Shown piece by piece: positions 33,731 to 34,513 of a stretch of 64,000 nucleotides of DNA. Below the pieces are notes generated by a model. It saw only the letters and a list, made by a program, of their open reading frames with translations, had not been told where the DNA came from and ran no database searches. The stretch comes from a virus, in the IMG/VR virus record IMGVR_UViG_3300047160_036265; one strand, written 5' to 3'. Made by a program: the position numbers and the translations under genes. Numbering within the stretch: the stretch's first letter is position 1; each line of letters opens with the position of its first letter.

Positions 33731-34513
33731 TTATTTCCACTCGTTGATGCGCTCAGCCAGGGCGAGCATTAGCCGGGGAAGGGCAACACCCGAACCGTTG
33801 AGCAGGTGACACTTGACGTTCTTCTTGCCGTCCTTGGGCTTGTAGCGGACCTGGGCGATCCGGCTTTGGTTATCACCCGTGTTGGAAATGGATGACACTT
33901 CCAGCCACTCCTTGCCCACTAGCACTTCGATGTCGATGGTCTGGTTGGAGACGGGCGAACGGTCCTTCTCCTCCAGCACGACCTTCCGGTGTTCGACGTT
34001 GAGATTCTTGAGAAGTTCGCACACGTCGTCCACCATCTGGTTGTGATAAAACTCGGAGGAATCCGGGGTGCAGATGGTGAACAACTCCACCTTGTTGAAC
34101 TGATGGACCCGCTTGTAGCCCTTATCCTTGGCACCGTAGGCCCCCGCCTCCTTACGGAAGCAGGGAGAATAGGCGACGTACCGGCGGGGAAGCTCCTCCT
34201 CCTTGAAGATTTCATTGGCGTGCAGCCCGACCAGGGGCGTCTCGGCGGTGGGAATGAGCATCAGGCCCTCCTTGGTCTGGTAGTAGTCGCCCTCGAAGCG
34301 GGGCAGAATGCCGGCCATCTCGCCCACCTTCTTATTTACCAAAAAGGGCGGGATGACGAACTGGTAGCCCTTGTGGCGGTGGAAGCGGATCATGTAGTTG
34401 ATGAGGTTCCACTCCATCACCGCCTCGTCGCCGGTGAGGAAATAGAACTTGGAGCCGGTGGTCTTCGCGCCCCGTTCAAAGTCGATCATTGCATGGCTCT
34501 CCGCATCAAACAA
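33731..34513 (-). CDS. seryl-tRNA synthetase catalytic core only (260 aa; lacks the N-terminal coiled-coil tRNA-binding arm)
   Basis: [12 protein letters not shown] is motif 1. [36 protein letters not shown] is motif 2 (E. coli [36 protein letters not shown]). [46 protein letters not shown] is motif 3. The ORF begins at the catalytic domain. Confidence 0.75.
   Translation of the reverse strand: [260 protein letters not shown]

Follow-up and report, generated by a model that had tools for sequence, protein, structure and literature searches.

In the textbook account, seryl-tRNA synthetase (SerRS) reads the shape of its tRNA with a dedicated arm, which is the major identity reader of the enzyme and acts across subunits in the dimer. 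The closest natural precedent for a SerRS without it is SerRS2alpha of protostome/insect mitochondria, which has lost the coiled coil and kept the active site, is inactive alone, and becomes active only as a heterodimer with SLIMP, an arm-bearing and catalytically dead partner (de Potter et al. 2023, PMC10570016). For SerRS, a 2022 review of synthetase paralogues names only the albomycin-resistant SerRS2, SLIMP and the amino acid:carrier-protein (aa:CP) ligases (PMC9437257). Huge phages carry synthetases (Al-Shayeb et al. 2020, PMC7162821), and we found no description of a truncated phage SerRS in the literature. Here we analysed an arm-less SerRS gene, mini-SerRS, in a 64,000-nucleotide stretch of viral DNA (IMG/VR record IMGVR_UViG_3300047160_036265), which as a whole is called the window below. 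The coding sequence lies on the minus strand at 33731..34489 (252 amino acids, stop codon 33731-33733), and it belongs to a family that is apparently phage-only and undescribed.

The retained core and its family

On the 252-residue protein, Pfam recognised the class II core PF00587 alone (4.7e-28). The best PDB sequence match was Aquifex SerRS (2dq3), over residues 149-399 of 425 (9e-54), and the NCBIfam model serS (TIGR00414) matched over its positions 151-400 of 418 with 261.5 bits, below the equivalog cut-off of 301.65. Over this core, mini-SerRS is 37-49% identical to canonical bacterial-type SerRS. An AlphaFold2 model, built on an alignment of 54 family sequences (alignment A1), reached a predicted local distance difference test score (pLDDT) of 91.4 and a predicted template modelling score (pTM) of 0.88, with the motif-2 loop (residues 117-121) as its sole low-confidence segment. 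It superposes on SerRS catalytic domains with template modelling (TM) scores of 0.88-0.92, the value of 0.92 being that to 2dq3. The initial annotation, made from the letters of the window alone, had described a SerRS reduced to its catalytic core and had proposed a structure model as a check that the arm is absent. Both the alignment to residues ~149-400 and the model, which consists of the catalytic core, bear this description out.

The core is of bacterial type. A profile of the family scored from 1e-71 to 1e-58 on bacterial-type SerRS (best 6.6e-71), as against 3.5e-8 (3w3s) and 0.0063 (2cim) on methanogen-type (type-2) SerRS, and no aa:CP ligase chain appeared among the structures up to E=10. 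The NCBIfam model serS_MJ reached 8.7e-4 on mini-SerRS. These scores agree with the earlier proposal of an independent minimisation from a bacterial-type enzyme.

Residue conservation was compared by columns between 110 family members and 115 canonical SerRS. T81, E83, R112, E114, F131, K133, E135, D186, E188, E197, S200, S202, N231, S233 and R239 are invariant in A1 and at least 99% conserved in the 110 members; among them T81, E83, R112, E114, F131, E135, E197, S200, S233 and R239 are also at least 99% conserved in the canonical set. On the minus strand, motif 1, the class II dimer interface, spans residues 41-52 (34334..34369), and its P48 stands at 99% across the 110 members in the same comparison. 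The TxE loop T81-A82-E83 (34241..34249) is invariant in the family. Motif 2 with its loop covers residues 104-135 (34085..34180) and holds R112, E114, F131 and E135; the EVSSISN strand, residues 197-203 (33881..33901), is invariant in both the mini and the canonical sets; and motif 3, residues 226-246 (33752..33814), holds S233 and R239. The motif-2 loop of SerRS is the docking point for the tRNA acceptor stem. In mini-SerRS it has kept its bacterial length and an aromatic tip, and R127, four residues ahead of the motif-2 Phe, is invariant.

Going by exact spacing, we take R112, E114, F131 and E135 to be the counterparts of Thermus thermophilus R256, E258, F275 and E279, and E197 and S200 those of the Mg/ATP ligands E345 and S348. 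S233 would presumably stand for T380, which contacts the serine hydroxyl, R239 for R386 at the ATP gamma-phosphate, and the TxE loop for the one that binds the amino group of serine in structures of T. thermophilus SerRS. An altered serine pocket, in which the Thr of H-T-L-N-G would have become Leu, was considered and rejected, because counting from the motif-3 Arg places the T380 counterpart at the invariant S233 of N-G-S. Judged by these residues, serine activation with formation of seryl-adenylate as in bacterial SerRS has very likely been kept, and dimerisation through motif 1 is a well-supported prediction. Motifs 2 and 3 are intact, as the initial annotation had quoted them, and with the seryl-adenylate ligands conserved its expectation of preserved adenylate chemistry still appears likely.

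What has been lost is more than the arm. Mini-SerRS corresponds to residues ~149-400 of bacterial SerRS and begins at E. coli residue 149, so that residues 1-148 of the E. coli enzyme (the arm and the ~45-residue linker 104-148) and the C-terminal tail of ~25 residues (~405-430) are missing. The earlier statement that the N-terminal arm is absent is thus right, but the arm is not the sole loss. In place of R368/R369 of canonical FQARR mini-SerRS has K/P, and in place of the GDxGF segment it has DRSP; E404 is missing. A set of invariant residues is specific to the family: K14, Y16, F17, G67, V105, C140, R177, E194, K226, L237 and P238. The opening MIDFERGAK and the stretches NQSKP and GVALPR form a signature of the family. 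A hidden Markov model (HMM) of the canonical N-domain, which as a control gave 1e-34 on the full-length SerRS of Brevundimonas phage Kikimora, found no match in any reading frame, whether in the window or in the ~175 kb of sequence that flanks the gene in ten relatives, together 238 kb of family-bearing DNA. An upstream exon, a frameshift and a separate arm gene were rejected on this six-frame search; an exon or frameshift restoring the arm would have overturned the initial annotation, and neither was found.

The open reading frame (ORF) as first listed ran over 33731..34513 on the minus strand, with a TTG start at 34513 and 260 codons. The start at TTG 34513 is almost certainly wrong and ATG 34489 the true one, because the latter has a GGAGAG Shine-Dalgarno sequence 7 nt upstream, overlaps the stop (TGA) of the upstream gene as ATGA, and gives a protein opening with MIDFERGAK, at which the homologues P0018, P0010, P0119 and P0003 also begin. 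The eight in-frame codons from TTG to ATG (34490..34513, minus strand) contain the GGAGAG ribosome-binding site and are most likely untranslated. The observation that the frame begins at the catalytic domain stands, while its length of 260 residues gives way to 252.

Mini-SerRS is far from alone. Among 5.8 billion proteins searched, at least 120 protein clusters share the same truncated ends at 61-98% identity; 113 of the 120 matches listed are 225-275 amino acids long, and some members come from contigs of 280-673 kb. A library reduced by clustering at 50% identity gave three family representatives (300, 273 and 272 bits), followed by ordinary SerRS of ~420 amino acids at 220 bits and no more than 46% identity. 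In a neighbour-joining tree of the core, the family formed one clade in 100/100 bootstraps, on a long stem and with no stable sister. Between mini-SerRS and a 98%-identical relative, the ratio of nonsynonymous to synonymous substitution rates (dN/dS) was 0.03 at dS 0.46, and mini-SerRS is thus under strong purifying selection. Given the at least 120 clusters of the same length, the single clade and this ratio, it is neither a fragment nor a chance ORF.

Among viruses, an alignment-based scan of IMG/VR found four family loci, two of them on uncultivated virus genomes (UViGs) of 532 and 498 kb; a scan with the single protein gave no match. Complete genomes with a family gene include IMGVR_UViG_3300049215_000771, IMGVR_UViG_3300020429_000529, Ga0502760_0000013 and ERZ25074452 ctg12106. 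When canonical SerRS served as the query against IMG/VR, 80 loci came back, including two mini copies. Of the remaining ~70 viral SerRS genes whose 5' end can be read, nearly all retain the arm (N-domain HMM E<=1e-21) and the tail of ~25 amino acids, and about a dozen of these are on UViGs of 240-607 kb; in L039, the single exception, the arm is shortened. Among the IMG/VR SerRS loci compared, the mini family alone has neither arm nor tail. In GenBank and cultured phages nothing exceeded 41% identity to mini-SerRS, the SerRS of Brevundimonas phage Kikimora being full length (433 amino acids). Among the matches listed for the 185,579 species genomes of GTDB there were full-length SerRS alone, at no more than 49% identity, and the family is likely absent from cells. 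A metagenome scan, though, had canonical SerRS and no family member among the 600 matches listed, even though JGI data are known to contain the family. One seemingly arm-less SerRS in a GTDB metagenome-assembled genome of Ignavibacteriales (L117, 9552-10849) was rejected as a long-read frameshift artefact: an ORF for the arm sits immediately before it in a different frame, and the adjacent LeuRS gene is broken too.

Several members carry additions to the core. P0018 and P0010 (L001, 10001-11005) have a C-terminal tail of ~80 residues with sub-threshold similarity to IF2_N (E 3e-4 and 7e-4), P0119 has a CxxC...CxxC zinc ribbon, P0041 a BamE-like N-terminal domain, and P0122 internal insertions and a 100-residue tail. 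These may be independent replacements of the lost binding functions.

Possible routes to a charged tRNA-Ser

The setting of the gene bears on its acceptor. The window, 87% of which is taken up by minus-strand ORFs, is a translation island of a huge phage, and a capsid gene of T4 type (Gp23) is among its genes. Besides mini-SerRS it encodes AspRS (46390-47934), a release factor (PCRF and RF-1 domains), RRF, PTH2 and ClpS, and ARAGORN with Rfam identified 12 tRNAs, four of them tRNA-Ala. Synthetases among tRNAs and translation factors, with relatives on genomes of more than 200 kb, are what is expected of a huge-phage translation-gene set. None of the 12 tRNAs is a tRNA-Ser, just as the initial annotation had said of the window, yet relatives have such genes beside mini-SerRS. 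In L016 and L259, which are ~97-98% identical and represent one phage species of ~500 kb, four tRNA-Ser genes follow mini-SerRS within 3.3 kb. On a 622-kb contig (L258), three tRNA-Ser genes of 85-90 nt lie within 4.1 kb of it. We count these as two independent lineages for the adjacency; L258, L259 and L260 were loci added later and inspected through Pfam tables only. The tRNA-Ser genes of L016, at 11366-13341 and read directly, are 86-95 nt long and of type II, with a long variable arm and G73. The acceptor indicated by the translation island, by the neighbouring tRNA-Ser genes and by the intact motif-2 loop is tRNA-Ser.

We tentatively favour the reading that mini-SerRS is a functional catalytic SerRS subunit which charges tRNA-Ser with an arm supplied in trans, likeliest by the host SerRS; to us this is a serious possibility that still falls short of probable. 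Mini-SerRS would bind ATP and serine and form seryl-adenylate as bacterial SerRS does, and the serine would then be moved to the 3' end of an ordinary tRNA-Ser with a long variable arm, of phage or host origin, whose acceptor stem would be received by the motif-2 loop that mini-SerRS has kept. Because mini-SerRS is without the coiled-coil arm, the body of the tRNA would have to be held in trans, by analogy with SerRS2alpha. A heterodimer with an arm-bearing SerRS subunit, either the host enzyme or an undetected phage partner, would be the likeliest form, since within a SerRS dimer each arm brings the tRNA to the active site of the partner subunit; the role of the arm as a cross-subunit identity reader and the precedent of SerRS2alpha/SLIMP speak for it. 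In favour of the reading as a whole are also the conserved ligands, the purifying selection, the shared ends within one clade and the translation setting, and IMG/VR scans found no second SerRS with an intact motif 2 on the two viral genomes of ~500 kb that carry the gene. A trans-acting tRNA-binding partner had been only an alternative in the initial annotation and has now moved to the front, while no gene for such a partner was found in the 238 kb.

Several observations weigh against this reading. The nearest cellular SerRS, among the matches listed, are ~46-49% identical to mini-SerRS, so that heterodimerisation with the enzymes of diverse hosts is not assured. The N-domain search gave no arm in any frame of the window or the relatives' flanks. 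No neighbour gene is conserved across the eight family loci compared. Besides, loss of the linker 104-148, the C-terminal tail, R368/R369 and E404 may alter how tRNA docks.

The broader claim, that the mini-SerRS family is the first natural class II synthetase core to act in translation without a domain that binds the tRNA body, we regard with some doubt. It would take one of two forms. As a plug-in, the phage subunit would capture the arm of host SerRS and divert or boost serylation for the phage's own set of tRNA-Ser. As a minimal homodimer, it would charge through acceptor-stem contacts alone, possibly with deliberately relaxed specificity.

This homodimer is also the strongest competitor of the favoured reading, and we judge it unlikely. 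A stand-alone minimal SerRS would touch its tRNA only at the acceptor stem and G73, and it might be less efficient or relaxed in specificity. That the 238 kb yielded no partner gene, and that the motif-2 loop and R127 are kept, would fit such an enzyme; the family-specific invariant residues could form a new tRNA-contact surface, and the appended modules (the IF2_N-like tail, the zinc ribbon, the BamE-like N-terminus) could add RNA affinity. It would also fit that the arm-deleted E. coli SerRS, as Borel and colleagues reportedly found in 1994, activates serine normally and can still charge tRNA, weakly and with its specificity lost. However, DmSerRS2alpha alone is without aminoacylation activity. 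The kcat/Km of the arm-deleted E. coli enzyme has reportedly fallen by more than four orders of magnitude, which counts against an enzyme working on its own. The tRNA-Ser genes adjoining mini-SerRS keep their long variable arm as well, which suggests that recognition by an arm still matters.

An arm encoded by the phage itself, elsewhere in its genome of ~500 kb, is in our estimate quite unlikely. It could be a stand-alone coiled-coil protein or a dead paralogue like SLIMP, which provides the precedent, and 64 kb of the genome are in view. Such a partner becomes more plausible because the same phage tolerates a synthetase in pieces: GluRS is split in the window, with its parts 18 kb apart. One is a catalytic half of 341 amino acids (47838-48860, minus strand; gltX_bact 338.6 bits, above the cut-off), and the other a 239-residue protein (28973-29689, minus strand) in which the anticodon-binding domain is fused to DUF2934. 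L001, a 72%-related phage, has an intact GluRS gene (443 amino acids) in the position syntenic with the second piece, and DUF2934 comes after it as a gene of its own. The N-domain HMM, though, matched nothing in the 238 kb. There was likewise no second SerRS-like match on the 532-kb UViG, where a copy with a degenerate motif 2 would escape.

A non-tRNA acceptor or product, be it a carrier protein, another protein, a small molecule or a nucleotide such as Ap4A, seems improbable. Repurposed class II paralogues such as the aa:CP ligases, EpmA, AsnA and HisZ have typically lost the tRNA-binding domain (PMC9437257). Nucleotide-related genes neighbour mini-SerRS in two lineages, a circularly permuted YpsA (cpYpsA/SLOG) in the clade of the window and an Apyc1-like enzyme in L008. 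In L260 (13008-17004), 2.3 kb downstream of mini-SerRS, the N-terminus of a 756-residue protein holds a PP-binding (phosphopantetheine-attachment) domain, and ThiF- and ThiS-like genes come next. No other carrier-type domain was seen close to a family member. But no such neighbour is shared throughout the family, the motif-2 loop on which an acceptor stem docks has its full length, and the context is one of translation and tRNA-Ser genes. The initial annotation had drawn the analogy with aa:CP ligases, and had suggested looking for carrier-protein genes or a stand-alone SerRS N-domain. In the window neither turned up: none of the 113 ORFs belongs to the PP-binding family, and the six-frame HMM search was negative. 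We rank this analogy low, on ancestry and on neighbours: descent is bacterial-type with no match to aa:CP ligase structures, and no carrier-protein gene is a conserved neighbour across the eight loci compared. The unchanged serine ligands and the translation-gene setting also speak against it.

Finally, a decaying remnant, or a non-catalytic decoy or regulator such as a serine/ATP sensor, is very improbable given the dN/dS of 0.03, the same ends over at least 120 clusters, the catalytic residues invariant in A1 and the confidently folded model, even though other synthetase fragments do occur in these phages (the GluRS halves of the window and a 190-residue HisRS/HisZ-like piece in L010).

Neighbouring genes in the window and its relatives

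Directly upstream of mini-SerRS, and coupled to it through the ATGA overlap, lies the circularly permuted YpsA (SLOG) gene (34486..35067, minus strand; PF12694 at 1.9e-39). YpsA/SLOG is a family of nucleotide-ligand-binding proteins. The gene adjoins mini-SerRS in relatives at 72-98% identity (L001 and L004-L006). In the 63%-identical L008 and L010, however, the upstream gene is without a Pfam match, and no cpYpsA is listed for L258-L260. We take the coupling to be inherited synteny, and cpYpsA/SLOG was rejected as a functional partner, being a neighbour in the window's own clade only.

Further genes of the window encode an RNA-repair protein (RlaP), a NYN nuclease, an AIR-synthase-like protein and glycosyltransferases. 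An 893-residue protein (30129-32810, minus strand) has major-vault-protein shoulder (7e-26) and repeat (7e-11) domains; it is conserved at 884 amino acids in L004 and L005, and it is unusual for a phage. The tRNA at 26088-26180 (minus strand) is the orthologue of the 72-nt tRNA-Ile(UAU) of the 98%-related L004 and L005. Right after U33, in the anticodon loop, it has a 21-nt insertion, TTTGGGTCAGACAACCCATGA, with an internal GGGT/ACCC hairpin, and its anticodon stem shows a compensatory change of A:T to C:G. ARAGORN assigned it no anticodon. It could be the bearer of a micro-intron or a disabled tRNA.

The surroundings of mini-SerRS differ among the relatives. L001 has three further aminoacyl-tRNA synthetase genes. 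On the 281-kb contig of L260, mini-SerRS is coupled to an RF-1-domain protein and a GatB/YqeY protein. In L010 (11541-12110), 0.7 kb from mini-SerRS, the 190-residue class II synthetase-like fragment has its match in the N-terminal HisRS/HisZ part alone (hisS 6.9e-18). L008 (coordinates listed: 5642-6022 and 10777-11607) has a phage-encoded transfer-messenger RNA and, directly downstream of mini-SerRS, the Apyc1-like phosphodiesterase, which has a metallo-beta-lactamase fold and belongs to the anti-Pycsar family (1.5e-19).

Comparison with known systems

Having discarded the arm and kept the catalytic residues, this large, conserved and apparently phage-only family amounts to a natural experiment on SerRS, with a bearing on the view that class II synthetases grew out of a bare catalytic core. 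A new means by which viruses tap host translation could also come to light, namely the exchange of subunits with a host synthetase, so far seen only between paralogues in animal mitochondria. With 252 amino acids and cognate phage tRNA-Ser genes alongside, mini-SerRS is also a compact candidate scaffold for orthogonal aminoacylation.

Compared with canonical bacterial-type SerRS, including the full-length enzymes of jumbo phages, mini-SerRS has the same catalytic fold, motifs 1-3, ligands and motif-2 loop. Its model also superposes with a TM score of 0.91 on PDB 9QOF (2025), an engineered arm-deletion mutant of E. coli SerRS. Such mutants of a bacterial SerRS bind seryl-adenylate analogues even without the arm. 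They are, however, laboratory constructs of 368 amino acids which keep the N-terminal base, the linker and the C-terminal tail, whereas mini-SerRS is natural, maintained in evolution and, with 252 amino acids, smaller.

The aa:CP ligases (Bll0957, Atu2573; Mocibob et al. 2010) are likewise SerRS-derived cores without the tRNA-binding domain. They descend from the methanogen-type (zinc) enzyme, activate Gly or Ala, and have small carrier-protein genes adjoining. Mini-SerRS, by contrast, is bacterial-type, its serine ligands are intact, and it has no conserved carrier-protein neighbour.

The likeness is closest to SerRS2alpha, which is also naturally arm-less with its active site conserved. In SerRS2alpha/SLIMP, the tRNA is recognised by the coiled coil of the other subunit, in the normal cross-dimer geometry. 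The two systems nevertheless differ in several respects. SerRS2alpha is a mitochondrial enzyme of eukaryotes which came about through gene duplication and has a dead partner dedicated to it, whereas mini-SerRS is bacterial-type and phage-borne, with no partner found in the 238 kb. SerRS2alpha keeps a mitochondria-specific C-tail domain, while mini-SerRS has lost the bacterial tail of ~25 residues. The tRNA-Ser genes near mini-SerRS have normal long variable arms.

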